Shown here in pieces: positions 6,040 through 22,376 of a stretch of DNA of 38,726 bases. Within the stretch, counting starts at the first letter, position 1; each line of letters opens with the position of its first letter. A program made the translations under genes and the position numbers. The DNA lies in IMG/VR virus record IMGVR_UViG_2695420821_000010, positions 1 to 38,726 of that record; one strand, 5' to 3'. Source of the stretch: a virus (taxonomy: Duplodnaviria; Heunggongvirae; Uroviricota; Caudoviricetes). The notes below the pieces were generated by a model. That model saw only the letters and a program-made list of their open reading frames with translations. It was not told where the DNA came from and did not search any database.

Positions 6040-6459
6040 TCGTGTTTCCGCTTCGCCTGAGCGCCTTTTCGCGCCATGTGATGAGTTCGGTCAGGCTCAT
6101 GGGATACAGTTCTGATGGCGGCCAGTGAAATACCACTGCCACATCCGCCATCAGGTCATCGACCGAGAGATTTTTCGGAAACGTCACTGCACCGAGTTCG
6201 GCGACAAAAAACCGACCACCTTACCGGCCAGCGCCACAAGGTCAGGCAGTTCCAGTGCGGCGACCTCCTGCTCGGTCAGCATCGGTGCCGTCATGCGCGG
6301 CAGCACCTTAATCAGTGCATCGACTTCGGAGTTCGCGACCGCTGCCAGACTGACACCGCGCAGCGTCCCCGCACTGGGTTTCATCAGCGTGACCTGTTCG
6401 ATAACCTGCTCACCACGCTTGACCGGATTGTCCAGGGTAATCACATTTTCTTTGTTCAT
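6032..6459 (-). CDS. E+E': Tail assembly chaperone E+E' produced by programmed -1 ribosomal frameshift (slippery site approx 6205-6211)
   Basis: Minus-strand slippery heptamer T TTT TTG inside E (codons GFL); hand translation of the -1 frame runs to a TAA at approx 6032-6034, overlapping the T start, as in the P2 E/E' arrangement. Confidence 0.7.
6184..6459 (-). CDS. E: Tail assembly chaperone E (gpE, 91 aa)
   Basis: 91-aa ORF between FII and T; sequence and size match P2 gpE. Confidence 0.88.
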   Translation of the reverse strand: MNKENVITLDNPVKRGEQVIEQVTLMKPSAGTLRGVSLAAVANSEVDALIKVLPRMTAPMLTEQEVAALELPDLVALAGKVVGFLSPNSVQ

Positions 6460-6486
6460 GGTTTTCTCACTTCTGAATCAGGGTTA

Positions 6487-6507
6487 ACCGGTCAGCCTGG
6501 CTGACCG
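6487..6507. promoter_or_regulatory. Perfect palindrome/hairpin in the FII-E intergenic region (possible attenuator or RNA processing/stability element)
   Basis: CCGGTCAGCC-T-GGCTGACCGG, 10-bp inverted arms; repeated identically at approx 12359-12379 in the duplicated copy. Confidence 0.4.
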
Positions 6508-6515
6508 GATGAAAA

Positions 6516-7034
6516 TCACAGGCCGATATTGCGGCGGTGTTGCTCCAGCCGGTCGACGCCGTTCACCTTCTCAATCATGTTGATGGTGTCGATTTCGACC
6601 AGCTCCTTACCGTCCATCGTCAGCCGGAAATAGGTGCAGACCACGGAGATTTTCGACTCGGTGTCTTCTCCCTGTTTGCCCTCGCCGGTGTCGATTTCTT
6701 TCTGACGTCCACGCATGACCACCTCGACGGCCACCGTTTCGCCGGTATCGTCGCGCTGGTAAGAGCCTGCAAAACGAATCGGTACGGCATCCACACCGGT
6801 TGCGGCGTAAAGCTCCCAGATAACCGAATCCGGGAAGCCACCGAGCGACCACTCCATTGACAGCGCATCGTCATCAAGGCCGAGGTCTACCGGTGCGCTG
6901 CCGTTCATCCCCGCACCGCGATAGTTTTCGAGCTTACGGGTCAGTTTTGGTAGCGTGACGGACTTCGCGACGCCCTGATAGCTGTAGCCGTTCAGAAAGA
7001 CGTTCATTAACTTGAGTTTGCGCGGCATTGCCAT
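6516..7034 (-). CDS. FII: Tail tube protein FII
   Basis: 172-aa ORF; sequence recognised as P2 gpFII; follows sheath gene FI. Confidence 0.92.
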   Translation of the reverse strand: MAMPRKLKLMNVFLNGYSYQGVAKSVTLPKLTRKLENYRGAGMNGSAPVDLGLDDDALSMEWSLGGFPDSVIWELYAATGVDAVPIRFAGSYQRDDTGETVAVEVVMRGRQKEIDTGEGKQGEDTESKISVVCTYFRLTMDGKELVEIDTINMIEKVNGVDRLEQHRRNIGL

Positions 7035-7046
7035 CGGTCAGGCTCC

Positions 7047-8237
7047 TTAATTGCTGTTAACCGAAGTGACCAGATTTGCCAGGTATTTATCGGTAATACG
7101 CTGGCGCAGGGTCAGGTTTTCAAGAGGAGGCACCGGTGTATAGTCGTAGTCGATATACAGTTTTCCGGCCTTGAGGGTTTCCGCATCGTTGGATTCTTCG
7201 CTAAACCAGCAGGTCGCATCCACGATATAGCCGTTTGTTTTCAGCTCACGGAATTTGGCATTGATGCCGTCAACGATGTCACGAATCAGCGTTGCGGTGA
7301 TGGGCTTGTCCACCGCCCACATGTGCGCCTCAGCCATCGTGTCGGCCAGCACCTGCGCGGTGCGGGTATAGTTTTCAAAGAGGAACAGCGGGTCATCAGA
7401 GCAGGTACGGTTACCCCAGAAGCGGAAACCGTCGCGGCGAATCAGCGTTGTGACGCCTGACTCGTTAAGCAGGTCAGCATCGGTGCCGGACTCCTGCAAA
7501 TCCCAGAATACAGATGCGCTGATGCCGGTAACACCATTCACCCCGACATTGGACAGCGTTTTATGCCAGCCCTGCTCCTGGTCGATTTTAGCGCGCAGAC
7601 CCAGCGCACGGGCGGTGGCATACGCGGTGGCGGTGGTACTGGTGACCGTATCCCATGCGAGGAAATCCGGCCAGATGACCATCAGCTCACGCTGGCTGAA
7701 ATTCTGGCGGTAGGCTTTCACCTCGGAAATGGTTTTACAGTCCCATGCGCTGATATACCCGAAAGCGCGCAGCTTCTGACAGACTGATGCCAGTGCAACA
7801 GCCACCTCTTTGGTGTCCAGTCCCGGCACGCCGAGAATACGCGGTTTAACACCGGTTACCGACTCTGCCGCCAGCAGGGCTTTCAGTCCGGTGTACTGAC
7901 CGTTTTCGTCGGTGGTGCCGATGATATTGGAAACGGTCTGCGCGAGTTTCGTTTCTTCGTCGTCGCCGGTGCCGTCTTCCACACGCACGACTACGGTGAC
8001 CGGTTTTGACTGGTCAGCGATGGCCTGTAACGACGCCGCCAGCGTGCCTTTTTTACCGGCCTTTGCAATTGCACTCTGCACATTGGTAATCAGCACCGGT
8101 TTATTGAGGGGGAAGGTTTCCGCATCCGCATCGCTGGCCGTGCAGACCATGCCGACAATGGCAGTGGATACGGTGGAAATGACGCGGGTGCCGTCGTTAA
8201 TCTCCAGCACCTGCACGCCGTGATGATAGTCACTCAT
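7047..8237 (-). CDS. FI: Contractile tail sheath protein FI
   Basis: 396-aa ORF; sequence recognised as P2 gpFI sheath; FI-FII-E-T synteny. Confidence 0.92.
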   Translation of the reverse strand: MSDYHHGVQVLEINDGTRVISTVSTAIVGMVCTASDADAETFPLNKPVLITNVQSAIAKAGKKGTLAASLQAIADQSKPVTVVVRVEDGTGDDEETKLAQTVSNIIGTTDENGQYTGLKALLAAESVTGVKPRILGVPGLDTKEVAVALASVCQKLRAFGYISAWDCKTISEVKAYRQNFSQRELMVIWPDFLAWDTVTSTTATAYATARALGLRAKIDQEQGWHKTLSNVGVNGVTGISASVFWDLQESGTDADLLNESGVTTLIRRDGFRFWGNRTCSDDPLFLFENYTRTAQVLADTMAEAHMWAVDKPITATLIRDIVDGINAKFRELKTNGYIVDATCWFSEESNDAETLKAGKLYIDYDYTPVPPLENLTLRQRITDKYLANLVTSVNSN

Positions 8238-8296
8238 CCGTTTAACTCCGTGGTTAATGGGTGAGTGATATTTTCAGTTGTGCCGGAGATGTCAGG

Positions 8297-8896
8297 CTAT
8301 TTGTCCCGGTTGGCTAAGGGATGACACAATTTATTCTTTGTCGCTGATGAGGGAAATTTTTTATAGAGCGTGGACAGACCAATATCAAAAATCAGTGCCA
8401 CGCGTTGACGTGACTCCCCTGCAGCCAGCAAACGCCCGGCCTGCTCCCACTCACTCGCGGTGAGTTTCGGTCGTCTGCCACCAATACGACCTTTGGCTCT
8501 GGCCGCTTCCAGCCCGGCCCGAGTCCGCTCGACAATGAGTTCTCGTTCCATTTCAGCCAGGGCACCCATCACATGAAAGAAAAAACGCCCCATCGGCGTG
8601 CTGGTATCAATAGCATCCGTCAGGCTGCGAAAATTAATGCCGCGTTCGCGCAGCTCCTCAACCAGAATGACCAGATGCCGCATACTACGCCCCAGCCGGT
8701 CCAGCTTCCAGACTACCAGTGTATCCCCCTCCGATAATGTCCTGAGCAGTTTTTTCAGTCCCGGCCTGTCGGACTTCGTGCCGCTGATTTTGTCCTCAAA
8801 AATCCGCTCACATCCTGCGCACTCCAGCGCGTTACGCTGCAATTCCGTGTTCTGGTCATTTGTTGACACGCGTACATAGCCAATAAGCATGAGCAT
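8297..8896 (-). CDS. Serine site-specific DNA invertase (Hin/Gin/Cin/Pin family), copy 1 of 3
   Basis: N-terminal YVRVSTNDQ catalytic-serine motif, resolvase core, C-terminal HTH (GLSTLYKKF); 199 aa with a short C-terminal extension relative to Pin/Gin; occupies the Z/fun position of P2. Confidence 0.9.
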   Translation of the reverse strand: MLMLIGYVRVSTNDQNTELQRNALECAGCERIFEDKISGTKSDRPGLKKLLRTLSEGDTLVVWKLDRLGRSMRHLVILVEELRERGINFRSLTDAIDTSTPMGRFFFHVMGALAEMERELIVERTRAGLEAARAKGRIGGRRPKLTASEWEQAGRLLAAGESRQRVALIFDIGLSTLYKKFPSSATKNKLCHPLANRDK

Positions 8897-8917
8897 CCCC
8901 CTGAATAAAAACCGGAG

Positions 8918-9415
8918 ATGATGCCAGTTACCCGTTATCTCTGCATTTTCATAAACGTTGGTTTGGGAGAAGGTGCTCCAGCTATTGGCGTTCCGTTCTT
9001 CTGGCCGTCCGCTGCAATGCCAAATACTGTAATCGACAGCTGGTCCAGTATGGTGTTTTTGAAGTTCAACGGCGCGAAATTCTCTGCCACTGATTATCCT
9101 GTGCTGGCGAAAGTGTTTCCTTCGCTGGTATTACCTGAAGCCCGCGGTGATTTCATTCGTATCTGGGATGACGGGCGAGGTGCAGACGGTGGTCGCGAAT
9201 TATTAAGCTGGCAGGCAGCAACAGCTTTATCGCAATTTGGCGGTAATTATCCAGAAGGGTCCGGCCATTCGATTGATAATCACGATGGGATATCAGCACA
9301 CCACCCAGGTTTCTCTCGATTTCAGTACACCAGTAACTCAGTAGGAGATGGGGTTAATTTTATTGCCGTCAGACCACGTAACATTGCATTTAACTTTCTG
9401 GTGAGGGCTAAATAA
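8918..9415 (+). CDS. Tail-fibre variable C-terminal cassette A (silent in this copy; coding part begins at the crossover site, approx 8960)
   Basis: Residues after GLGEGA are identical to the C-terminus of H (16120..17403); the [16 protein letters not shown]-terminus is read from invertase-proximal DNA and is not a real start. Confidence 0.6.
   Translation: MMPVTRYLCIFINVGLGEGAPAIGVPFFWPSAAMPNTVIDSWSSMVFLKFNGAKFSATDYPVLAKVFPSLVLPEARGDFIRIWDDGRGADGGRELLSWQAATALSQFGGNYPEGSGHSIDNHDGISAHHPGFSRFQYTSNSVGDGVNFIAVRPRNIAFNFLVRAK
8946..8971. other. gix/hix-like 26-bp inversion crossover site (invertase-proximal), site 1
   Basis: TTTTCATAAACG-TT-GGTTTGGGAGAA: two 12-bp half-sites resembling the TTATCnAAAACC consensus around a 2-bp core; sequence diverges immediately to the right between copies. 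Confidence 0.6.
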
Positions 9416-10008
9416 TGAAACCTGTTTTTGATGAAAATGGACTGGCTACAGTGCCGGGTGATATGCGTTGTTTTTATTATGATGCAGTAACGTATGAATA
9501 TACGGGCTGGTCTGATGAATATATTAATACTGGTGTAAGTATGCCCGCCTGTTCCACTGGTATTGACCCTGGCGAAAACATTCCGGGAAAAGCGGCTGTA
9601 TTTACAGGTAAGGGATGGAGCCATGAAGAGGACCATCGCAATGAGACTGTTTACTCAATCGAAAATGGCGCAGCTGTTACAGTGGGTTATATCGGTGCTA
9701 TCAAAAACGGTTATGTCACGCTTTCACCGTTAACGCCATATGATAAATGGGATGGTGAGAAATGGGTGACAGATACTGAGGCACAACACAGTGCCGCAGT
9801 AGAAGCGGCAGAAGCACAGCGCCAGTCACTGATTGATGCAGCAATGGCTTCCATCAGTCTGATTCAGCTGAAATTACAGGCCGGACGGAAACTGACTCAG
9901 GCAGAAACAACCCGACTTAACGCCGTGCTGGATTACATTGACGCGGTGACGGCAACAGATACCAGCACCGCGCCGGATGTCATCTGGCCTGAACTGCCGG
10001 AGGCGTAG
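9415..10008 (+). CDS. Tail fibre assembly protein (chaperone for cassette A; gpG/U-like)
   Basis: 197-aa ORF immediately downstream of cassette A; the conserved C-terminal motif ([17 protein letters not shown]) is shared with the alternative chaperone. Confidence 0.85.
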
Positions 10009-10408
10009 GCCATTCAATATCGGGTGCTGTTGAAGTATCAACACGCATCAGCAGCACACGGTATTTCTTCCATTCGGTGAGAGTTGAAGTTTCTTCATCA
10101 GTTGCGATATCAGCATCAACAGCATCCTGACGCCAGGATATTTCACTGTCAGCTTTTTCCCGTAATTGGGATTTTTTAACTTCAGCAATAGCTATTAATT
10201 CCTTTTTGGTCGGCTGAGGAATATCTATCAGTGCTGGTTTTCCATTCAGTGTTCCAATCTGTTTTCCTGGTGGAATATCCATAAATAACTTTTTATGTTC
10301 TTCCTCACTGACTATTACACCATCATCAGGCCACAGACCTGATGCCTCAAATTTTTCTTTCTCCGATATGGGGAAAAAGCCATTTGCTTTAGCGCTCCAT
10401 ACGTACAT
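9980..10408 (-). CDS. Tail fibre assembly protein (alternative chaperone for cassette B; U'-like)
   Basis: 142-aa ORF convergent with the other chaperone; C-terminal [16 protein letters not shown] motif; position equivalent to Mu U'. Confidence 0.8.
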
Positions 10409-10409
10409 A

Positions 10410-10745
10410 TCAATACCCCACCGCTATAATGTCCACATTAAATCCCCCGGGACCTGCCTGCCAGATGCTGGCCCCTGTTAATGATTTTGTTTGATGAACA
10501 ACCGCCACATTTGCTGGCGATAGTGTTTCAGTTGTTACAGTACCGATATCATTCCAGTTAATTGAGATGGAATAGTTCGTTGTTGTAAACGACCGGGGGA
10601 AAGTTATGTGTCTTGCATTGGTGCCAACAGGAAATCCAAGATAAACACGCTGAATTATCATTCCTCCAGGTAACATAACCCAGTTAGCACCTTCTCCAAA
10701 ACCAACGTTTATGAAAATGCAGAGATAACGGGTAACTGGCATCAT
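10410..10745 (-). CDS. Tail-fibre variable C-terminal cassette B (silent in this copy)
   Basis: 111-aa ORF whose coding part starts at the crossover site (GFGEGANWV...); the N-terminus is invertase-proximal sequence. Confidence 0.6.
10692..10717. other. gix/hix-like inversion crossover site, site 2 (inverted copy of invertase-proximal site)
   Basis: TTCTCCAAAACC-AA-CGTTTATGAAAA; reverse complement of site 1 except for the cassette-linked polymorphism. Confidence 0.6.
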
Positions 10746-12010
10746 CTCCGGTTTTTATTCAGGGGGATGCTCATGCTTATTGGCTATGTACGCGTGTCAA
10801 CAAATGACCAGAACACGGAATTGCAGCGTAACGCGCTGGAGTGCGCAGGATGTGAGCGGATTTTTGAGGACAAAATCAGCGGCACGAAGTCCGACAGGCC
10901 GGGACTGAAAAAACTGCTCAGGACATTATCGGAGGGGGATACACTGGTAGTCTGGAAGCTGGACCGGCTGGGGCGTAGTATGCGGCATCTGGTCATTCTG
11001 GTTGAGGAGCTGCGCGAACGCGGCATTAATTTTCGCAGCCTGACGGATGCTATTGATACCAGCACGCCGATGGGGCGTTTTTTCTTTCATGTGATGGGTG
11101 CCCTGGCTGAAATGGAACGAGAACTCATTGTCGAGCGGACTCGGGCCGGGCTGGAAGCGGCCAGAGCCAAAGGTCGTATTGGTGGCAGACGACCGAAACT
11201 CACCGCGAGTGAGTGGGAGCAGGCCGGGCGTTTGCTGGCTGCAGGGGAGTCACGTCAACGCGTGGCACTGATTTTTGATATTGGTCTGTCCACGCTCTAT
11301 AAAAAATTTCCCTCATCAGCGACAAAGAATAAATTGTGTCATCCCTTAGCCAACCGGGACAAATAGCCTGACATCTCCGGCACAACTGAAAATATCACTC
11401 ACCCATTAACCACGGAGTTAAACGGATGAGTGACTATCATCACGGCGTGCAGGTGCTGGAGATTAACGACGGCACCCGCGTCATTTCCACCGTATCCACT
11501 GCCATTGTCGGCATGGTCTGCACGGCCAGCGATGCGGATGCGGAAACCTTCCCCCTCAATAAACCGGTGCTGATTACCAATGTGCAGAGTGCAATTGCAA
11601 AGGCCGGTAAAAAAGGCACGCTGGCGGCGTCGTTACAGGCCATCGCTGACCAGTCAAAACCGGTCACCGTAGTCGTGCGTGTGGAAGACGGCACCGGCGA
11701 CGACGAAGAAACGAAACTCGCGCAGACCGTTTCCAATATCATCGGCACCACCGACGAAAACGGTCAGTACACCGGACTGAAAGCCCTGCTGGCGGCAGAG
11801 TCGGTAACCGGTGTTAAACCGCGTATTCTCGGCGTGCCGGGACTGGACACCAAAGAGGTGGCTGTTGCACTGGCATCAGTCTGTCAGAAGCTGCGCGCTT
11901 TCGGGTATATCAGCGCATGGGACTGTAAAACCATTTCCGAGGTGAAAGCCTACCGCCAGAATTTCAGCCAGCGTGAGCTGATGGTCATCTGGCCGGATTT
12001 CCTCGCATGG
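10699..12010. repeat. Inverted copy (~1.3 kb) of 7653-8964: invertase, site and FI 5' end
   Basis: Identical ORF translations on the opposite strand; coordinates of the two arms sum to 19663. Confidence 0.85.
10767..11366 (+). CDS. Serine DNA invertase, copy 2 of 3 (inverted orientation)
   Basis: Protein identical to the 8297..8896 product; lies within the ~1.3 kb inverted repeat. Confidence 0.9.
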   Translation: MLMLIGYVRVSTNDQNTELQRNALECAGCERIFEDKISGTKSDRPGLKKLLRTLSEGDTLVVWKLDRLGRSMRHLVILVEELRERGINFRSLTDAIDTSTPMGRFFFHVMGALAEMERELIVERTRAGLEAARAKGRIGGRRPKLTASEWEQAGRLLAAGESRQRVALIFDIGLSTLYKKFPSSATKNKLCHPLANRDK

Positions 12011-12012
12011 GA
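11426..12012 (+). pseudogene. FI: Truncated tail sheath FI fragment (N-terminal ~195 codons) ending at a rearrangement junction
   Basis: ORF 11426..12376 matches FI for residues 1-195 (to ...[11 protein letters not shown]) and then reads antisense-E sequence ([10 protein letters not shown]...); junction approx 12011-12016. Confidence 0.8.
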
Positions 12013-12055
12013 TACACCGCCATCAGGTCATCGACCGAGAGATTTTTCGGAAACG

Positions 12056-12331
12056 TCACTGCACCGAGTTCGGCGACAAAAAACCGACCACCTTACCGGC
12101 CAGCGCCACAAGGTCAGGCAGTTCCAGTGCGGCGACCTCCTGCTCGGTCAGCATCGGTGCCGTCATGCGCGGCAGCACCTTAATCAGTGCATCGACTTCG
12201 GAGTTCGCGACCGCTGCCAGACTGACACCGCGCAGCGTCCCCGCACTGGGTTTCATCAGCGTGACCTGTTCGATAACCTGCTCACCACGCTTGACCGGAT
12301 TGTCCAGGGTAATCACATTTTCTTTGTTCAT
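12056..12331 (-). CDS. E: Tail assembly chaperone E, copy 2 (E intact; the E' frameshift extension is disrupted by the junction)
   Basis: Identical 91-aa product; direct-repeat offset of 5872 bp from copy 1; only ~43 nt of the E' extension remain before the junction. Confidence 0.8.
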
Positions 12332-12387
12332 GGTTTTCTCACTTCTGAATCAGGGTTAACCGGTCAGCCTGGCTGACCGGATGAAAA

Positions 12388-12906
12388 TCACAGGCCGATA
12401 TTGCGGCGGTGTTGCTCCAGCCGGTCGACGCCGTTCACCTTCTCAATCATGTTGATGGTGTCGATTTCGACCAGCTCCTTACCGTCCATCGTCAGCCGGA
12501 AATAGGTGCAGACCACGGAGATTTTCGACTCGGTGTCTTCTCCCTGTTTGCCCTCGCCGGTGTCGATTTCTTTCTGACGTCCACGCATGACCACCTCGAC
12601 GGCCACCGTTTCGCCGGTATCGTCGCGCTGGTAAGAGCCTGCAAAACGAATCGGTACGGCATCCACACCGGTTGCGGCGTAAAGCTCCCAGATAACCGAA
12701 TCCGGGAAGCCACCGAGCGACCACTCCATTGACAGCGCATCGTCATCAAGGCCGAGGTCTACCGGTGCGCTGCCGTTCATCCCCGCACCGCGATAGTTTT
12801 CGAGCTTACGGGTCAGTTTTGGTAGCGTGACGGACTTCGCGACGCCCTGATAGCTGTAGCCGTTCAGAAAGACGTTCATTAACTTGAGTTTGCGCGGCAT
12901 TGCCAT
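12388..12906 (-). CDS. FII: Tail tube protein FII, copy 2
   Basis: Identical 172-aa product to 6516..7034. Confidence 0.9.
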   Translation of the reverse strand: MAMPRKLKLMNVFLNGYSYQGVAKSVTLPKLTRKLENYRGAGMNGSAPVDLGLDDDALSMEWSLGGFPDSVIWELYAATGVDAVPIRFAGSYQRDDTGETVAVEVVMRGRQKEIDTGEGKQGEDTESKISVVCTYFRLTMDGKELVEIDTINMIEKVNGVDRLEQHRRNIGL

Positions 12907-12918
12907 CGGTCAGGCTCC

Positions 12919-14109
12919 TTAATTGCTGTTAACCGAAGTGACCAGATTTGCCAGGTATTTATCGGTAATACGCTGGCGCAGGGTCAGGTTTTCAAGAGGA
13001 GGCACCGGTGTATAGTCGTAGTCGATATACAGTTTTCCGGCCTTGAGGGTTTCCGCATCGTTGGATTCTTCGCTAAACCAGCAGGTCGCATCCACGATAT
13101 AGCCGTTTGTTTTCAGCTCACGGAATTTGGCATTGATGCCGTCAACGATGTCACGAATCAGCGTTGCGGTGATGGGCTTGTCCACCGCCCACATGTGCGC
13201 CTCAGCCATCGTGTCGGCCAGCACCTGCGCGGTGCGGGTATAGTTTTCAAAGAGGAACAGCGGGTCATCAGAGCAGGTACGGTTACCCCAGAAGCGGAAA
13301 CCGTCGCGGCGAATCAGCGTTGTGACGCCTGACTCGTTAAGCAGGTCAGCATCGGTGCCGGACTCCTGCAAATCCCAGAATACAGATGCGCTGATGCCGG
13401 TAACACCATTCACCCCGACATTGGACAGCGTTTTATGCCAGCCCTGCTCCTGGTCGATTTTAGCGCGCAGACCCAGCGCACGGGCGGTGGCATACGCGGT
13501 GGCGGTGGTACTGGTGACCGTATCCCATGCGAGGAAATCCGGCCAGATGACCATCAGCTCACGCTGGCTGAAATTCTGGCGGTAGGCTTTCACCTCGGAA
13601 ATGGTTTTACAGTCCCATGCGCTGATATACCCGAAAGCGCGCAGCTTCTGACAGACTGATGCCAGTGCAACAGCCACCTCTTTGGTGTCCAGTCCCGGCA
13701 CGCCGAGAATACGCGGTTTAACACCGGTTACCGACTCTGCCGCCAGCAGGGCTTTCAGTCCGGTGTACTGACCGTTTTCGTCGGTGGTGCCGATGATATT
13801 GGAAACGGTCTGCGCGAGTTTCGTTTCTTCGTCGTCGCCGGTGCCGTCTTCCACACGCACGACTACGGTGACCGGTTTTGACTGGTCAGCGATGGCCTGT
13901 AACGACGCCGCCAGCGTGCCTTTTTTACCGGCCTTTGCAATTGCACTCTGCACATTGGTAATCAGCACCGGTTTATTGAGGGGGAAGGTTTCCGCATCCG
14001 CATCGCTGGCCGTGCAGACCATGCCGACAATGGCAGTGGATACGGTGGAAATGACGCGGGTGCCGTCGTTAATCTCCAGCACCTGCACGCCGTGATGATA
14101 GTCACTCAT
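12919..14109 (-). CDS. FI: Tail sheath protein FI, copy 2
   Basis: Identical 396-aa product to 7047..8237. Confidence 0.9.
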   Translation of the reverse strand: MSDYHHGVQVLEINDGTRVISTVSTAIVGMVCTASDADAETFPLNKPVLITNVQSAIAKAGKKGTLAASLQAIADQSKPVTVVVRVEDGTGDDEETKLAQTVSNIIGTTDENGQYTGLKALLAAESVTGVKPRILGVPGLDTKEVAVALASVCQKLRAFGYISAWDCKTISEVKAYRQNFSQRELMVIWPDFLAWDTVTSTTATAYATARALGLRAKIDQEQGWHKTLSNVGVNGVTGISASVFWDLQESGTDADLLNESGVTTLIRRDGFRFWGNRTCSDDPLFLFENYTRTAQVLADTMAEAHMWAVDKPITATLIRDIVDGINAKFRELKTNGYIVDATCWFSEESNDAETLKAGKLYIDYDYTPVPPLENLTLRQRITDKYLANLVTSVNSN

Positions 14110-14168
14110 CCGTTTAACTCCGTGGTTAATGGGTGAGTGATATTTTCAGTTGTGCCGGAGATGTCAGG

Positions 14169-14768
14169 CTATTTGTCCCGGTTGGCTAAGGGATGACACA
14201 ATTTATTCTTTGTCGCTGATGAGGGAAATTTTTTATAGAGCGTGGACAGACCAATATCAAAAATCAGTGCCACGCGTTGACGTGACTCCCCTGCAGCCAG
14301 CAAACGCCCGGCCTGCTCCCACTCACTCGCGGTGAGTTTCGGTCGTCTGCCACCAATACGACCTTTGGCTCTGGCCGCTTCCAGCCCGGCCCGAGTCCGC
14401 TCGACAATGAGTTCTCGTTCCATTTCAGCCAGGGCACCCATCACATGAAAGAAAAAACGCCCCATCGGCGTGCTGGTATCAATAGCATCCGTCAGGCTGC
14501 GAAAATTAATGCCGCGTTCGCGCAGCTCCTCAACCAGAATGACCAGATGCCGCATACTACGCCCCAGCCGGTCCAGCTTCCAGACTACCAGTGTATCCCC
14601 CTCCGATAATGTCCTGAGCAGTTTTTTCAGTCCCGGCCTGTCGGACTTCGTGCCGCTGATTTTGTCCTCAAAAATCCGCTCACATCCTGCGCACTCCAGC
14701 GCGTTACGCTGCAATTCCGTGTTCTGGTCATTTGTTGACACGCGTACATAGCCAATAAGCATGAGCAT
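14169..14768 (-). CDS. Serine DNA invertase, copy 3 of 3
   Basis: Identical 199-aa product; this copy is adjacent to the segment that is joined to H (canonical arrangement). Confidence 0.9.
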   Translation of the reverse strand: MLMLIGYVRVSTNDQNTELQRNALECAGCERIFEDKISGTKSDRPGLKKLLRTLSEGDTLVVWKLDRLGRSMRHLVILVEELRERGINFRSLTDAIDTSTPMGRFFFHVMGALAEMERELIVERTRAGLEAARAKGRIGGRRPKLTASEWEQAGRLLAAGESRQRVALIFDIGLSTLYKKFPSSATKNKLCHPLANRDK

Positions 14769-14789
14769 CCCCCTGAATAAAAACCGGAG

Positions 14790-15125
14790 ATGATGCCAGT
14801 TACCCGTTATCTCTGCATTTTCATAAACGTTGGTTTTGGAGAAGGTGCTAACTGGGTTATGTTACCTGGAGGAATGATAATTCAGCGTGTTTATCTTGGA
14901 TTTCCTGTTGGCACCAATGCAAGACACATAACTTTCCCCCGGTCGTTTACAACAACGAACTATTCCATCTCAATTAACTGGAATGATATCGGTACTGTAA
15001 CAACTGAAACACTATCGCCAGCAAATGTGGCGGTTGTTCATCAAACAAAATCATTAACAGGGGCCAGCATCTGGCAGGCAGGTCCCGGGGGATTTAATGT
15101 GGACATTATAGCGGTGGGGTATTGA
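14790..15125 (+). CDS. Tail-fibre variable C-terminal cassette B (silent, awaiting inversion)
   Basis: Identical to the 10410..10745 product. Confidence 0.6.
14818..14843. other. gix/hix-like inversion crossover site, site 3 (invertase-proximal)
   Basis: TTTTCATAAACG-TT-GGTTTTGGAGAA; same position relative to the invertase as site 1. Confidence 0.6.
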
Positions 15126-15126
15126 T

Positions 15127-15555
15127 ATGTACGTATGGAGCGCTAAAGCAAATGGCTTTTTCCCCATATCGGAGAAAGAAAAATTTGAGGCATCAGGTCT
15201 GTGGCCTGATGATGGTGTAATAGTCAGTGAGGAAGAACATAAAAAGTTATTTATGGATATTCCACCAGGAAAACAGATTGGAACACTGAATGGAAAACCA
15301 GCACTGATAGATATTCCTCAGCCGACCAAAAAGGAATTAATAGCTATTGCTGAAGTTAAAAAATCCCAATTACGGGAAAAAGCTGACAGTGAAATATCCT
15401 GGCGTCAGGATGCTGTTGATGCTGATATCGCAACTGATGAAGAAACTTCAACTCTCACCGAATGGAAGAAATACCGTGTGCTGCTGATGCGTGTTGATAC
15501 TTCAACAGCACCCGATATTGAATGGCCTACGCCTCCGGCAGTTCAGGCCAGATGA
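15127..15555 (+). CDS. Tail fibre assembly protein (alternative chaperone for cassette B)
   Basis: Identical to the 9980..10408 product. Confidence 0.8.
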
Positions 15556-16120
15556 CATCCGGCGCGGTGCTGGTATCTGTTGCCGTCACCGCGTCAATGT
15601 AATCCAGCACGGCGTTAAGTCGGGTTGTTTCTGCCTGAGTCAGTTTCCGTCCGGCCTGTAATTTCAGCTGAATCAGACTGATGGAAGCCATTGCTGCATC
15701 AATCAGTGACTGGCGCTGTGCTTCTGCCGCTTCTACTGCGGCACTGTGTTGTGCCTCAGTATCTGTCACCCATTTCTCACCATCCCATTTATCATATGGC
15801 GTTAACGGTGAAAGCGTGACATAACCGTTTTTGATAGCACCGATATAACCCACTGTAACAGCTGCGCCATTTTCGATTGAGTAAACAGTCTCATTGCGAT
15901 GGTCCTCTTCATGGCTCCATCCCTTACCTGTAAATACAGCCGCTTTTCCCGGAATGTTTTCGCCAGGGTCAATACCAGTGGAACAGGCGGGCATACTTAC
16001 ACCAGTATTAATATATTCATCAGACCAGCCCGTATATTCATACGTTACTGCATCATAATAAAAACAACGCATATCACCCGGCACTGTAGCCAGTCCATTT
16101 TCATCAAAAACAGGTTTCAT
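15527..16120 (-). CDS. Tail fibre assembly protein (cognate chaperone of the currently expressed H C-terminus)
   Basis: Identical to the 9415..10008 product; directly downstream of H on the minus strand. Confidence 0.85.
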
Positions 16121-17403
16121 TATTTAGCCCTCACCAGAAAGTTAAATGCAATGTTACGTGGTCTGACGGCAATAAAATTAACCCCATCTCCTACTGAGTT
16201 ACTGGTGTACTGAAATCGAGAGAAACCTGGGTGGTGTGCTGATATCCCATCGTGATTATCAATCGAATGGCCGGACCCTTCTGGATAATTACCGCCAAAT
16301 TGCGATAAAGCTGTTGCTGCCTGCCAGCTTAATAATTCGCGACCACCGTCTGCACCTCGCCCGTCATCCCAGATACGAATGAAATCACCGCGGGCTTCAG
16401 GTAATACCAGCGAAGGAAACACTTTCGCCAGCACAGGATAATCAGTGGCAGAGAATTTCGCGCCGTTGAACTTCAAAAACACCATACTGGACCAGCTGTC
16501 GATTACAGTATTTGGCATTGCAGCGGACGGCCAGAAGAACGGAACGCCAATAGCTGGAGCACCTTCTCCCAAACCAAGGTATGCGAGAAGACCAGCTACA
16601 TCCTTTCCACTCAAATGAGTCAGCGTCTCATCCAGTGGCTGCTTACCTGACAGCGCATTGTTAATGGTGGTACTGAATTTCGGGTCATTGTTGATAGCTG
16701 CGGCAATTTCTTTCAGTGTGTCCAGCGTGTCAGGGGCACCGTTAATCAGAGCGGTAATAGCGGCCTGTACAAACGCAGTGGTCGCAATCCGCGTGGTGTT
16801 ATTTCCTGCGGCAGGCGTCGGCGCTTTTGGTTCTCCGGTAAATGTCGGATTATGTTTCTGTGCATACTGGGTATGAGGATCCTGTGCGGCAATGTGGTTT
16901 CTCATCTGGTCATCCACATACAGCTTTAACTCCAGAACTTCATCATCCACGTATTTACGGGTCGCCAGTACCACCGACGGGTCGATTTTCAGCGTGATGG
17001 CTTCGGTATTCGTGACAACCAGAATCATGCGGATAGTCTGGGTACGACCGCTGCCTTCCTGCAACTGCGGTTTGTACGTTTCCGGGCAGTTCGCCACCGC
17101 AATGAGTACGCCTTCATCATCATAAAGCCCAATCTCACGGATCCAGAATCCGCCCTCGTTCTCAGGGATGATTTGCTCCGCAATAATCTGGCTCTGGTTG
17201 TTCGGGTCAACACTCAGAAGATTCAGCGGTGCAATGCGTTTCTGATTAATCAGTTTTGTCTGTGCCGGGTCTGGTGTCGGCAAGACACCATTCGCATCAC
17301 CAACGGCCATTTGCGTCAGATTCAGCTTACTGCCGAGCATCGTCGCGTTAGCCAGCCGTGCTGCGCCCTGATTAGTCAGAATGGCGTAGTATTTCACTGT
17401 CAT
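16120..17403 (-). CDS. H: Tail fibre protein H (427 aa) with variable C-terminus A currently in the expressed orientation
   Basis: N-terminus MTVKYYAILTNQGAARLANA... resembles the conserved N-terminal domain of Mu S/P2 H tail fibres; C-terminal 140 aa identical to cassette A; followed by its chaperone. Confidence 0.88.
   Translation of the reverse strand: MTVKYYAILTNQGAARLANATMLGSKLNLTQMAVGDANGVLPTPDPAQTKLINQKRIAPLNLLSVDPNNQSQIIAEQIIPENEGGFWIREIGLYDDEGVLIAVANCPETYKPQLQEGSGRTQTIRMILVVTNTEAITLKIDPSVVLATRKYVDDEVLELKLYVDDQMRNHIAAQDPHTQYAQKHNPTFTGEPKAPTPAAGNNTTRIATTAFVQAAITALINGAPDTLDTLKEIAAAINNDPKFSTTINNALSGKQPLDETLTHLSGKDVAGLLAYLGLGEGAPAIGVPFFWPSAAMPNTVIDSWSSMVFLKFNGAKFSATDYPVLAKVFPSLVLPEARGDFIRIWDDGRGADGGRELLSWQAATALSQFGGNYPEGSGHSIDNHDGISAHHPGFSRFQYTSNSVGDGVNFIAVRPRNIAFNFLVRAK
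16564..16589. other. gix/hix-like inversion crossover site, site 4 (inside H at the constant/variable boundary)
   Basis: TTCTCCCAAACC-AA-GGTATGCGAGAA, a near-perfect 12-2-12 palindrome encoding the ...LGLGEGA... boundary of H. Confidence 0.6.
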
Positions 17404-18916: not shown

Positions 18917-19264
18917 TCAACTCACAGGGATGGTTAACGAAAGTGGCTGGCCGGTGTCGTTGTGCTGGCCGGTTAACGTGACAGTCATTCGCCCGTCAAA
19001 ACTGCGCTCAGTGGTGACGGATGACAGGGTGACGCGGGGTTCCCATTTCAGCACCGCCATGTAACAGGTGACCTTAATCTGCAACTCAAGCGCCGGAGTC
19101 TGCGGCTGGTCAATCATTGACGCCAGCAACGAGCCGTAATCACGACGCATCACCCGTGAGCCGACCGGTGTGCGCAGGATATCGCCGATACTCTGGCTGA
19201 TATGCTCAAGGTCAGTGACAGTCAGGCCATCACTGCGATTCATTCCGAGATAACGCGCTGTCAT
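18917..19264 (-). CDS. W: Baseplate wedge protein W (gp25-like)
   Basis: 115-aa ORF; recognised as P2 gpW. Confidence 0.88.
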   Translation of the reverse strand: MTARYLGMNRSDGLTVTDLEHISQSIGDILRTPVGSRVMRRDYGSLLASMIDQPQTPALELQIKVTCYMAVLKWEPRVTLSSVTTERSFDGRMTVTLTGQHNDTGQPLSLTIPVS

Positions 19265-19896
19265 AGAGGACTCCCGGTTGTGCCGCCGCTGTCGCCGGGG
19301 TGTTTATGGGTATGCAGTACCTTACCGTTTGATGAGAGTTCACCGCCGGTATGCGCGATGTTGCCGCGCATCGTCCCGCCCTTCTGCACTTCCAGCGTGC
19401 CGGTAGTCAGTTTGTTGGTGCAGACCACTTCCGGTGTGTCCAGGGTGACGCGGGTTGATGCTTTCACCGTGACCACCGGCACCGTGGCAGTAACAGAATC
19501 AGAAGCCATCACGCTGGCCGTTTTAATTCCGCTTGCCGTGAGTGCACTGGTTTCGGGTTCATACTCAATCACCGCCCCGTCAGGGAAACGGATATGCAGG
19601 GCATCCTCCGACGCAGACGGCGCGGGGTTATCACTGGAATAAATCCCCGGCAGAACGAACGCCGTGTCGAGTTCACCGCCCACGGCCAGAATCAGCACCT
19701 GCTCCCCCACGGAAGGTGCCCACCATGTGCGCGAACGTCCGGCGCGATGGGTCAGCCACTGAAGCCAGTCGGTACACATGCCGCCGGTCTGCACACGGCA
19801 GCTACCGGCGTGAAGGTCGGTTTCGATGATAATGCCGGTGCGAATCATGTTGCGCAGTGCGCGCGCGAGTTCCTGAATATTTGCGAGAGTGTTCAT
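19261..19896 (-). CDS. V: Baseplate spike/assembly protein V
   Basis: 211-aa ORF beginning MNTLANIQELARALRNMIRTG as in P2 gpV. Confidence 0.88.
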   Translation of the reverse strand: MNTLANIQELARALRNMIRTGIIIETDLHAGSCRVQTGGMCTDWLQWLTHRAGRSRTWWAPSVGEQVLILAVGGELDTAFVLPGIYSSDNPAPSASEDALHIRFPDGAVIEYEPETSALTASGIKTASVMASDSVTATVPVVTVKASTRVTLDTPEVVCTNKLTTGTLEVQKGGTMRGNIAHTGGELSSNGKVLHTHKHPGDSGGTTGSPL

Positions 19897-19908
19897 AACG
19901 GGAAGGAT

Positions 19909-19930
19909 GCCGCTAGTTTACACTAGCGGC
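19909..19930. promoter_or_regulatory. Perfect 9-bp-stem hairpin in the 5' leader of V, just downstream of the cyclase moron
   Basis: GCCGCTAGT-TTAC-ACTAGCGGC about 13 nt upstream of the V start codon on the minus strand; no U-run on the transcribed strand, so not a canonical terminator. Confidence 0.4.
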
Positions 19931-19996
19931 AAATTTTGATGCTTTGGTGAGGTATGATACAACAGACTACATTCCCCCCCTCAAATAAATCACAAT

Positions 19997-21349
19997 TTAA
20001 TCGTTAATAAAAACTGAAAAACACCTCTCCCTTTCTATTAATTGATCCCCATTCCAAAAAGATACAAACATATAATGCAGTCCTTTGTAATGACAATCTT
20101 CCCAATGCTTAGCAAAATAACGCTCGCCAGTGTACCTTGCTACCTCATATGACTCATGATTACCCTTATTATCAACATTACCTGCATCAGGACCTGTATT
20201 TTCGACACGAAATTTGAACCTGGGATTAGAGTACTGTTCTTGTGAGTAATAGTACCCTTTAAATGAGATACCCATACCCTTTTTTATCATTCGAGAACAA
20301 CAAATATACTCATCATCAGACACATCATTTTCACTCTTCTTAAGCGTTGCTTTTACAATGAGTTTACCCCCCTCATCATTTATAGGCAGCAAATTACAAT
20401 AACGTTCGTTATCAAATACATATTGTCTGTAATTTATTGGTTTGCCTGAAGCATCTTTATAATTTGGGGTTAAATACAATTCCTTGTGTTCTACGCCATT
20501 GTTTCTGTTAATTTTATGTTTTAATTGAACATCATCAAGGCCTAATAACTCTACAAAACTTGCACCTATCATAATTGAGTTTTTAGGAGCTTTTTGCTGA
20601 AGTTTTGCCGCAACATCAACAAAAAAAGATGTCGCAGTCACTTCATGACTTTCCATATAGCCATATTTTGACCACACCACTTCCTCGTGAGGGCCATAGT
20701 CAAGACCAATTCTTATTCCTAAGTTTTCGTCAACTCCCAAATCACTCAATTTAGGTATAACAACCCCCTTGAACATTTCAATCAAAACAACGGCACAGTT
20801 TATTGCATCAATTGCACTGTCTGCGATCTTATTGTTTTTATATCGGTCATTACTTCGGAAAAATGCCATTACTGCATCACCCATAATTCTATGGACGTGA
20901 CCATCAAATGCATTCACTGTTTCGATCGCACATCTTATAATATCATTTTTGATTCTAAATACTATTTCTGGTGGAAAAACAACCCCAAGTTTAGTTGAGC
21001 CGATTATATCCATAAACATGGTAATGGAATAACCATTTCTCACCTCACCATCATCCATTTTATTAAAGTCCGGATGACATCCAAAACTTGTCATGAGTGG
21101 ACCGTGCTTGCCAAATTTATTTCTAACAATATCTTTCACCTGATAACTTTGAACATCAGCTCCACCTACATCTTTTTTCAATGAAATAGAACTTCTTACG
21201 AAACCAGAAGATTTACTTAAGCTCTCCGTGGCCAACTGTGTATTATCCACTGATTCAAATATAGCATCATGGACTGATTGCGATTTTGATTTTGAAATTA
21301 TCTCTTCCAGCCTTTCATCTAATACTGAATAAATACTCTTTATGGACAT
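19997..21349 (-). CDS. Class III nucleotidyl cyclase-domain protein (approx 450 aa) with unassigned N- and C-terminal domains; candidate Pycsar-like cyclase
   Basis: Cyclase motifs read in order in the translation: FMDIIGSTKL, RIMGDAVMAFF, IRIGLDYGP; start chosen at MSIKSIY (GAAGG Shine-Dalgarno 9 nt upstream) rather than the overlapping MWLL start of the ORF track; AT-rich moron. Confidence 0.7.
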   Translation of the reverse strand: MSIKSIYSVLDERLEEIISKSKSQSVHDAIFESVDNTQLATESLSKSSGFVRSSISLKKDVGGADVQSYQVKDIVRNKFGKHGPLMTSFGCHPDFNKMDDGEVRNGYSITMFMDIIGSTKLGVVFPPEIVFRIKNDIIRCAIETVNAFDGHVHRIMGDAVMAFFRSNDRYKNNKIADSAIDAINCAVVLIEMFKGVVIPKLSDLGVDENLGIRIGLDYGPHEEVVWSKYGYMESHEVTATSFFVDVAAKLQQKAPKNSIMIGASFVELLGLDDVQLKHKINRNNGVEHKELYLTPNYKDASGKPINYRQYVFDNERYCNLLPINDEGGKLIVKATLKKSENDVSDDEYICCSRMIKKGMGISFKGYYYSQEQYSNPRFKFRVENTGPDAGNVDNKGNHESYEVARYTGERYFAKHWEDCHYKGLHYMFVSFWNGDQLIERERCFSVFIND

Positions 21350-21359
21350 ACAAAAACCT

Positions 21360-21899
21360 TCACCAATTAGATAAAGCAACCACATATATTAAAAAACAAA
21401 GCACATAAACAGCCATTTTTATAAAGTCAATGGCTATGATTTGCATCTCATATTTGCTAGTTAATGCTCTGGAAAGAGTATAATTCAATGCAATTAACTG
21501 CTCCAACAACTCCAGATCACTCACTGACTTAAAACTACTAGAATAGCAATCAAGACTACTATAATAACTTGATATATCAACAAATGAAAAAGTATTCTCC
21601 TTATCACTCTTAGAGATATTTGGAGTAACACCTTTTAGAGAAAATAACAAAGAGATTACCAATAACCCAACTATTACAATCAATAAAAGAGAGAGAAAAA
21701 TCCTATCACTATCCACATCTACCAGACATATAACTTTGTCAAAATTTGCTATAATAGCAACAATTACAGCTGAAGCTAAGCTTAGTAATATCGTTGATTT
21801 AGTATTGGCTGAATTTAAATAAGAATCCGTCCGCGCGATTGTTTTCAGCACCAGTTCAATTTTCTTTACAACATCACCTTCATTCTTTTTACATGTCAC
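21360..21899 (-). CDS. Small integral membrane protein (3 predicted TM helices), putative effector partner of the cyclase
   Basis: 179-aa ORF with three strongly hydrophobic stretches; apparent GTG start preceded by GAAGG; ends 10 nt before the cyclase gene; AT-rich like its neighbour. Confidence 0.6.
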   Translation of the reverse strand: MTCKKNEGDVVKKIELVLKTIARTDSYLNSANTKSTILLSLASAVIVAIIANFDKVICLVDVDSDRIFLSLLLIVIVGLLVISLLFSLKGVTPNISKSDKENTFSFVDISSYYSSLDCYSSSFKSVSDLELLEQLIALNYTLSRALTSKYEMQIIAIDFIKMAVYVLCFLIYVVALSNW

Positions 21900-21914
21900 T
21901 TGTACTTTACCTTC

Positions 21915-22376
21915 CTATTCTCTGGATTTTTCCAGAAGACAATTAATGATCGTTGATTCTATAAAGTCAATATCATTATGTGAAAAACCAAGTAGTTTAC
22001 GTTCATCATACTTAATAGGTTTAACGTCGGGATTGGGTCTATCTTTTAAACCATACTGATGCACTCGCGCAATTCGTTGCACTCCGCTGGCAAACTCCAC
22101 CACCGCGGCACTCTCGCTACCGGTTGCTTTCATAAACCGGTTAGTGCGTAATTTCATAAACATTTCCCGCTTTATCCGGCCTTTCTTATTTCGTACTGGT
22201 TGGTTTTTTCTCGGTACATACGGCGTACCATCCGGGGCTTTTTGTAATTTAATTCGCTGCTGCTGGCGCTGGCGCAGCTTCTTCGCAATATCTACCGCCA
22301 GTCGACGACGCCCTGACGGTGACAGCGACTCAATCAGTCCGGTCAGCCGGTCTTCAAAACGCTTAAACTCATTCAT
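21915..22376 (-). CDS. S: Tail completion protein S
   Basis: 153-aa ORF recognised as P2 gpS; overlaps R. Confidence 0.88.
   Translation of the reverse strand: MNEFKRFEDRLTGLIESLSPSGRRRLAVDIAKKLRQRQQQRIKLQKAPDGTPYVPRKNQPVRNKKGRIKREMFMKLRTNRFMKATGSESAAVVEFASGVQRIARVHQYGLKDRPNPDVKPIKYDERKLLGFSHNDIDFIESTIINCLLEKSRE

Follow-up and report, generated by a model that had tools for sequence, protein, structure and literature searches.

What kind of system is encoded by the AT-rich pair of genes that separates genes S and V of a P2-like prophage? The window, i.e. the whole stretch of 38,726 nucleotides analyzed here, carries between these two prophage genes a co-oriented minus-strand pair: pycTM (21360-21899), which encodes a Pycsar membrane effector of 179 aa from a GTG start, and pycC (19997-21349), which encodes a Pycsar pyrimidine cyclase of 450 aa from an ATG at 21349. 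A preliminary description of this DNA had proposed two minus-strand ORFs in an AT-rich island, separated by 10 nt and each preceded by a GAAGG-type Shine-Dalgarno (SD) sequence, and all of this was borne out. The GC content is 0.31-0.375 over positions 20000-21999, compared with 0.56-0.61 for the tail and lysis genes on either side, and there are 10 nt from the pycTM TGA (21362-21360) to the cyclase ATG. The same description regarded the pair as prophage cargo related to, but different from, canonical Pycsar. Our results indicate with high probability that the locus is a Pycsar system, carried as a moron by the P2-like prophage at its S/V accessory-gene site.

Both SD sequences were read off the sequence, one ahead of each start codon on the minus strand: GGAAGG (21915-21910) lies 10 nt before the GTG of pycTM and overlaps with the TAG that ends gene S, while GAAGG (21361-21357) lies 7 nt before the ATG of pycC and overlaps the TGA stop of pycTM. 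The latter arrangement suggests that pycTM and pycC are translationally coupled. The mechanical ORF of the cyclase is longer, 462 aa with its start at 21385, and reaches into the upstream gene; this start was rejected because the ATG at 21349 has an SD, the RefSeq start gives 450 aa and the homologs are all about 450 aa long. A consensus scan found a minus-strand sequence resembling a sigma-70 promoter, TTCACA-17-TAGAAT (21956-21984, 10/12 matches), about 57 nt upstream of pycTM. As the promoter and terminator scan is weakly informative and near the shuffled background (12 sites versus 8.4 expected by chance), this promoter is a candidate only. The start of pycTM is 15 nt after S and no terminator was found in between, so the expression of the pair may follow the phage late operon, instead of or besides a lysogenic promoter.

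The smaller protein was described as having three hydrophobic helices, and hydropathy does place three segments at approximately residues 35-58, 66-88 and 154-177. The proposed structure prediction gave an all-helical AF2 model (pLDDT 87) with an N-terminal amphipathic helix, TM1 (about 35-58), TM2 (about 66-88), a helical soluble region (about 93-153) and TM3 (about 154-177). The N-terminal helix contains a motif, R23-T24-D25-x-Y27...N32-T33-K34-S35-T36, which is conserved in an alignment of 29 homologs. The protein matches Pfam PF18967 ("PycTM, Pycsar effector protein") with 28.0 bits at a cut-off of 27.2, as well as four PADLOC PycTM models (among them PDLC02364, E 8.5e-29), and its RefSeq product name is 'Pycsar system effector family protein'. 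Neither a cNMP_binding (PF00027) nor a TIR domain was found in it with Pfam. It had been argued that a protein this small has no room for a cNMP-binding domain and is for this reason not canonical Pycsar. The argument does not hold, since effectors of the PF18967 family lack that domain by design. The presence of a CNBD or TIR domain, which PycTM does not have, defines the PycTIR subtype only and carries no weight against Pycsar membership. Pfam profile searches recognized no nucleotide-binding domain in PycTM, and searches of PDB sequences and of the PDB with Foldseek returned no solved relative, only non-significant helical-bundle matches; gating of PycTM by a ligand is therefore assumed from its family.

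The larger protein possesses the three class III cyclase motifs in the order that was claimed for them: FMDIIGSTKL (residues 112-121), RIMGDAVMAFF (154-164) and IRIGLDYGP (212-220). A search with Pfam PF00211, which the preliminary description had proposed as a check, gave 25.4 bits over residues 111-273 (cut-off 21.9). The catalytic domain (approximately residues 103-273; 20531-21043, minus strand) has the class III cyclase fold. The PADLOC PycC model PDLC00764 matches the cyclase over its full length (E 8.9e-129), and PycC-specific PADLOC models outscore generic cyclase models by hundreds of bits. The metal-binding aspartates are D114 and D158 and the base pocket consists of F112, R154 and M156. 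All five residues are invariant in 48 homologs and align with D102, D146, F100, R142 and Q144 of EaPycC, and the catalytic site of PycC is intact. The helical N-terminal extension that characterizes PycC enzymes may be present: the core is preceded in the model by helices at residues 8-33 and 71-78, with residues 27-66 modeled at low confidence, and the profile alignment to EaPycC begins at residue 19. The C-terminal part, at about residues 330-448 (20006-20362, minus strand), is an immunoglobulin-like AGS-C domain, whose Pfam AGS_C match is just below the cut-off. This feature is already known from PycC and from CD-NTases and is presumed to be a regulatory or phage-sensing module. Taken together, the enzyme is a class III cyclase of the clade E type that ends in an Ig-like AGS-C. 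RefSeq gives it the generic name 'adenylate/guanylate cyclase domain-containing protein'.

The E. coli E831 Pycsar system was reportedly described by Tal et al. in 2021 (Cell 184:5728). It consists of EcPycC and EcPycTM and shares the architecture of the window pair, in which a class III cyclase ending in AGS-C is combined with a membrane effector of the PycTM type. For full-length EcPycC fragments alone were found, and an EcPycC-like sequence was rebuilt from a frameshifted Logan contig (L007). This sequence and the window cyclase both match PDLC00764 over the whole length and both have an F/R/M base pocket, with about 33% identity over 383 columns. The structure 9ARD, whose 'EcPycC' we take from its name to be the E831 enzyme, is about 19% identical in the AGS-C domain and was not found by a phmmer single-sequence search with the window cyclase. 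On these grounds identity of the window pair with the E831 system was rejected. No copy of EcPycC was found in 5,426 complete E. coli genomes. As far as the sequences go, the window cyclase is a different member of the family. It is known that EcPycC makes cCMP and that E831 Pycsar protects against T5 and P1, in experiments that include cCMP toxicity (10.1101/2025.08.24.671296, PMC9117128). Given the low identity to EcPycC, the phage range and the trigger of the window pair may differ from those of the E831 system.

The window pair also shares its logic with CBASS, in which abortive infection likewise depends on a small TM effector alongside a nucleotide cyclase and the same Ig-like AGS-C is fused to the signal-making enzyme. 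PycTM shows full-length homology to PADLOC CBASS '2TM' effector models (E 1.2e-20). The CBASS enzyme, however, is a CD-NTase and its signal an oligonucleotide, while the window enzyme is a class III mononucleotide cyclase with an expected signal that is a cyclic mononucleotide. PADLOC CD-NTase and 'oligonucleotide-cyclase' models match the AGS-C part only (residues 327-442, E 1e-4 and 3e-3). CBASS membership was rejected because there is no CD-NTase (SMODS) oligonucleotide cyclase and the catalytic part folds like a class III cyclase.

The position of the TM gene upstream of the cyclase had also been held against Pycsar. This does not stand either, as PycTM followed by PycC is the usual order and is kept in four other genera, with 62-66% identity in Klebsiella, Yersinia and Pectobacterium and 44% in Pseudomonas. 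A TM gene followed by a cyclase has been called "a typical Pycsar system" (PMC13069673), and 12 homolog pairs of the two proteins appear to share contigs, as the lengths of their contigs are identical. The identical pair is present in 6 of 5,426 complete E. coli genomes, where RefSeq already labels it Pycsar, and all eight contexts of the exact protein that were read are P2-like S/V sites. The homologous cassette in Klebsiella is at the S/V site as well, with the same wiring as the window pair, the one in Yersinia is beside gpA in a different orientation context, and those in Pectobacterium and Pseudomonas are situated at non-phage chromosomal sites. The pair had been placed at the position of P2 orf30 and does sit in the corresponding slot between S and V, where P2 is known to carry accessory genes. 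P2 orf30 differs in that it is one gene, read from the other strand and with a terminator context of its own, while the window pair runs in the direction of the late genes and directly adjoins S. Defense systems in P2 late-gene hotspots have been described, as has the gpA-portal defense hotspot (PMC9122126; 10.64898/2026.02.27.708500). In its main text the 2026 P2/P4 survey (10.64898/2026.02.27.708500) does not use the word 'Pycsar', and in the 2022 paper (PMC9122126) it occurs a single time, in a context other than P2 cargo. There is no NCBIfam model for either protein, PHROGs contains near-identical families (phrog_19370 and phrog_20615) that are both labeled 'unknown function', and the cassette DNA was not found in the phage GenBank collection. 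The view that an AT-rich prophage cargo of a class III cyclase and a small membrane protein, related to Pycsar, lies at S/V is hereby confirmed. The part that declared it novel or "not canonical Pycsar" fails on the PF18967 and PADLOC PycTM matches, the conserved gene order and the RefSeq Pycsar annotation. The locus is an ordinary, already annotated Pycsar system and not a new kind of cyclic-nucleotide defense.

How the system would work can be drawn by analogy with characterized Pycsar systems (PMC11224242, PMC12489823), from which we infer the nucleotide made, the trigger, the membrane disruption and the defense phenotype. In the lysogen PycC would be kept inactive, and infection by a heterologous phage would activate it, the cue possibly being read via AGS-C. 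PycC would then cyclize a pyrimidine NTP, in the most probable case turning CTP into 3',5'-cCMP, and the nucleotide would activate (open) PycTM, which would compromise the inner membrane. Growth arrest or death before the cycle of the invader ends would amount to abortive infection, protecting sibling lysogens and with them the prophage. The pair is in this respect probably an abortive-infection module, as the preliminary description also proposed.

The messenger of such a Pycsar system could also be cUMP or another cNMP instead of cCMP. EaPycC of Elizabethkingia anophelis (PDB 8JSF, PMC11224242) is a clade E cytidylate cyclase of 342 aa without AGS-C and with 25-27% identity to the window cyclase. 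Joint mutation of its F100, R142 and Q144 abolishes cCMP synthesis (PMC11224242). Q144 is replaced in the CTP pocket of the window cyclase by Met156, a residue that does not vary within the subfamily, and this leaves room for cUMP or a further cNMP as the product. The window cyclase is moreover just 25-33% identical to the two cytidylate cyclases that are known. Against this, both closest solved relatives were deposited as cytidylate cyclases, the EcPycC-like gene carries the identical F/R/M triad, and uridylate cyclases match far worse (8JSZ, E 0.13; 7R65, E 0.14). In addition, only clade E PycCs make cCMP and the pockets of uridylate cyclases differ, being Y50/D94/R97 in BcPycC and F60/K104/F109 in AnPycC (PMC11224242). 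A product other than cCMP is for these reasons rather unlikely.

Other explanations concern the system as a whole. The proposal that this is a novel or non-canonical defense, in which the extra domains of the cyclase are the receptor and the small TM protein is not a Pycsar effector, draws on the missing PF00027 domain and on AGS-C being without a demonstrated function. It is highly improbable and, at the level of sequence, largely refuted by the family assignments: the small protein is above the curated Pfam threshold for PycTM and matches the four PADLOC models, the gene order is the typical one, the extra domain is the AGS-C of PycC and CD-NTases, and the EcPycC-like gene matches the same PDLC00764 even more strongly (511 bits). 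It is hardly conceivable that the pair is a housekeeping adenylate/guanylate cyclase next to an unrelated membrane protein. The generic RefSeq name of the cyclase and its match to the general PF00211 family would fit, but the PycC-specific models are far ahead of the generic ones, the two genes are tightly linked and mobile, and they reside in an AT-rich prophage island in so few of the complete E. coli genomes. The pair could also serve the lytic program of the prophage, as auxiliary membrane permeabilization or lysis timing with the late O operon, and not the defense of the lysogen. It is co-oriented with the late genes without a terminator after S, the genes for holin, endolysin and spanin precede it, the P2 O-operon terminator is directly after S, and the Klebsiella homolog is wired alike. 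A lytic role is nevertheless very unlikely, because the same cassette occurs at the non-phage sites of Pectobacterium and Pseudomonas and in the gpA-side hotspot of Yersinia, there are viable P2-like phages whose S/V site is empty (e.g. L-413C), and the family is established as anti-phage defense.

The Pycsar reading of the locus can be extended in one direction. The missing terminator after S and the same wiring in the 62%-identical Klebsiella cassette make late O-operon transcription possible. There is a small chance that the pair is transcribed in this way and armed in the lytic cycle of the prophage, with its strongly divergent AGS-C reading a cue that is different from that of E831 and absent from P2 virion proteins. 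If so, it would be a Pycsar variant tuned to competition between phages or with phage satellites in lytic growth, and not to lysogen protection alone, and it would give a handle on what activates PycC.

Prophage hotspots with defense cargo are already well documented, and this locus is recognized by current tools and RefSeq. Its value is that of a compact natural E. coli Pycsar in a defined P2 slot, markedly unlike the single laboratory model. A comparison of the window and E831 systems in phage range and in escape mutants could inform on AGS-C sensing and on how a small PycTM without a classical cNMP-binding domain reads its signal.

On the upstream side of the cassette, gene S (21915-22376, minus strand; tail completion and virion morphogenesis; Pfam Phage_tail_S, E 3.5e-31) has its last approximately 45 codons AT-rich and divergent from S of P2, L-413C and R18C, and it is in this 3' end that the candidate promoter falls. 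BLAST breakpoints lie at 22057 versus R18C and at 22259 versus L-413C. The divergent, AT-rich end places a recombination junction inside S. On the downstream side, gene V (19261-19896, minus strand; baseplate spike) is 96% identical to L-413C V. A stem-loop, GCCGCTAG-N6-CTAGCGGC (19908-19931), lies 12-35 nt ahead of V, where the cassette has its downstream edge. L-413C and R18C have it too, with compensatory changes in the stem, and it is probably phage backbone, either as terminator of the O operon or as a portion of the leader of V.

The two-gene, AT-rich cargo reported in the preliminary description is confirmed. By ORF reading of the window, both genes lie in the same orientation on the minus strand: pycTM (21360-21899) encodes 179 amino acids from a GTG start, and pycC (19997-21349) encodes 450 amino acids counted from the ATG at 21349. 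A pycC start at 21385, given by the longest mechanical ORF, was rejected, as it overlaps pycTM and both RefSeq and the homologs start elsewhere. The 10 nt gap between the genes was found as described, as were the GAAGG-type ribosome-binding sites, each overlapping the stop codon of the preceding gene (S in the case of pycTM, which starts 15 nt past the S stop), three hydrophobic segments in the small protein (approximately residues 35-58, 66-88 and 154-177) and the three class III cyclase motifs, in correct order, in the pycC product. The pair has a GC content of 0.31-0.375, compared with 0.56-0.61 on either side, and the proposed insertion in the P2 orf30 slot agrees with flanking genes, which are P2 tail genes S (upstream, 21915-22376; Pfam Phage_tail_S, E 3.5e-31) and V (downstream, 19261-19896).

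The nucleotidyl-cyclase identity of the larger protein was upheld by profile searches. Guanylate_cyc of Pfam matches residues 111-273 above the gathering cut-off, the PADLOC PycC model PDLC00764 covers the protein end to end (E 8.9e-129) and 12 further PADLOC PycC models match as well, while AGS_C is found at residues 330-448, 0.2 bits under its cut-off. The best solved relative is the clade E cytidylate cyclase EaPycC from Elizabethkingia anophelis (PDB 8JSF), which was recovered with phmmer (E 1.5e-25), with a profile of 48 homologs (E 1.6e-46) and by Foldseek with the AlphaFold model (mean pLDDT 84) as query (E 1.6e-20). D114 and D158 are the counterparts of EaPycC D102 and D146, and F112 and R154 those of F100 and R142; none of these four varies across the 48 homologs. 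Judged from this alignment, the catalytic residues of PycC are intact. The CTP-pocket residue Q144 of EaPycC is replaced by Met156, which is also invariant in the 48 homologs.

The small protein passes the curated threshold of PF18967 ("PycTM, Pycsar effector protein") and matches the PADLOC PycTM models (best E 8.5e-29); CBASS "2TM" effector models in PADLOC also match it across the full length (E 1.2e-20). Its predicted model is all-helical (pLDDT 87), and neither the PDB sequence search nor the Foldseek PDB search found a solved structural relative. In the alignment of 29 homologs a strongly conserved R23-T24-D25-x-Y27...N32-T33-K34-S35-T36 directly precedes TM1, with R23, T24, D25, Y27, L28 and A31-L41 invariant in 29 of 29; R23, D25, Y27, N32 and S35 are retained even in a Pseudomonas protein 23% identical to PycTM. 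This near-invariant stretch, RTDSYLNSANTKSTILLSLxSA, corresponds to residues 23-44 (window approximately 21770-21833) and adjoins TM1. It is a candidate functional site, possibly for ligand binding or gating, in an effector with no recognisable cNMP-binding domain.

From these assignments, the pair is very probably a Pycsar operon. The preliminary description had considered it not canonical Pycsar, and its three arguments do not hold: the small protein said to have no room for a cNMP-binding domain passes the PycTM threshold, the unexplained flanking domains of the cyclase include a C-terminal part matching AGS_C (0.2 bits under cut-off), and the effector-first order is kept, with short or overlapping junctions, in four other genera and was called "a typical Pycsar system" in a 2026 paper (PMC13069673). 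The cyclases of these pairs are 64% (Pectobacterium, chromosomal), 44% (Pseudomonas, chromosomal), 62% (Klebsiella, in the S/V slot of a P2-like prophage) and 66% identical (Yersinia, adjoining the gpA replication gene, on the gpA side flanking the major P2 hotspot). Since the cassette of the Yersinia enterocolitica contigs sits next to gpA and the E. coli and Klebsiella copies between S and V, one cassette lineage occupies two different P2-type hotspots. In RefSeq, 6 complete E. coli genomes out of 5,426 contain DNA identical to the pair, and all eight genomic contexts read for the exact protein are P2-like S/V sites. Neither the kind of system nor the kind of site it occupies is new, and public annotation already carries the label (RefSeq: "adenylate/guanylate cyclase domain-containing protein" and "Pycsar system effector family protein").

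A novel non-Pycsar system is contradicted by the family assignments of both proteins, and a housekeeping role for the cyclase by its mobility, its rarity and the PycC-specific scores. The wiring of the pair would permit a lysis function of the phage's own; however, the cassette is also found outside phages and phages with an empty site are viable, which argues against it.

We initially expected the pair to be the Pycsar system of E. coli E831, which produces cCMP and confers protection from T5 and P1, and rejected this on low identity to PDB entry 9ARD and to an EcPycC-like gene. The EcPycC domain in 9ARD, which from the shared name we infer to be the E831 enzyme, is only 19% identical to the window cyclase and was missed by single-sequence search with it. 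From a frameshifted public Logan contig (ERR10498409_528, positions 1-1148, split over three frames) we reconstructed 382 residues of an EcPycC-like sequence. In the overlap, its AGS-C part, it is 96% identical to 9ARD; against the window cyclase its identity is 33% across an alignment of 383 columns. It also matches PDLC00764 (511 bits) and has domain order and F/R/M pocket residues in common with the window cyclase, which is therefore a different, uncharacterised member of the same architectural family. The EcPycC-like gene adjoins a resolvase and a GmrSD-type restriction gene. Its DNA is absent from all 5,426 complete E. coli genomes, suggesting that the laboratory model Pycsar is very rare.

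The best-supported mechanism, by analogy, is the standard Pycsar model (PMC11224242; PMC12489823), in which PycC would be activated upon infection and synthesise a cyclic pyrimidine, which would activate PycTM, impair the membrane and abort infection. In the E831 system, T5 escapes through capsid mutations and the capsid protein by itself does not activate. The product of the window PycC is probably cCMP specifically, because each of the two closest solved relatives is a cytidylate cyclase, cCMP synthesis is reported solely for clade E enzymes, and solved uridylate cyclases match far less well and have other pocket residues. The glutamine to methionine difference in the pocket would allow cUMP, which we consider unlikely. 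The remaining interest is family-wide, i.e. what AGS-C senses and how PycTM reads the signal without a classical cNMP-binding domain, for which this divergent ortholog offers a possible comparison.

In phage P2 the same S/V slot is occupied by orf30. Homology to the empty-site phage L-413C stops at 19913 and restarts at 22259; with phage R18C, where another gene (246 aa) fills the slot, homology restarts at 22057. The last approximately 45 codons of S (21915-22058) are AT-rich and diverged from S of P2, L-413C and R18C, although still S-like, while the first approximately 107 are nearly identical to R18C S. The S gene is thus a mosaic with a cargo-exchange junction within an essential tail gene, which suggests that recombination with a different P2-like phage of lower GC brought in the cassette. 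P2 has the O-operon terminator directly after S and a pV activator site ahead of V. A stem-loop at 19908-19931, 3' of pycC, lies 12-35 nt before the start codon of V. It is conserved between this phage, L-413C and R18C, the stems GCCGCTAG/CTAGCGGC, GCCGCCGG/CCCGGCGGC and GCTGCTGG/CCAGCGGC showing compensatory changes, whereas P2 differs in sequence there. The stem-loop may terminate the O operon or form part of the V leader. The sole lysogenic promoter candidate, TTCACA-17-TAGAAT (21984-21956), lies within the divergent S end and comes from a scan with a match count near background. The pair could be expressed by late-operon read-through, from its own promoter, or both.

Elsewhere in the window, a 288-aa ORF (31432-32298, minus strand) without a match in Pfam or PADLOC lies between gpA and the portal gene, at the classical defence hotspot of P2, where the related ST2747 prophage has three different hypothetical genes instead. 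At 6145-16589, large 100%-identical repeats surround the genes for tail sheath, tail tube, invertase and tail-fibre assembly: inverted arms of 3,070 nt (8946-12015 and 13520-16589) and 1,330 nt (7648-8977 and 10686-12015), and a direct repeat starting at 6145 and 12017. Because of them the sheath, tube and resolvase-type invertase ORFs are present two to three times. The ST2747 prophage has a single copy, and the repeats look like a mis-assembly or a rearrangement with the invertible tail-fibre segment at its centre.
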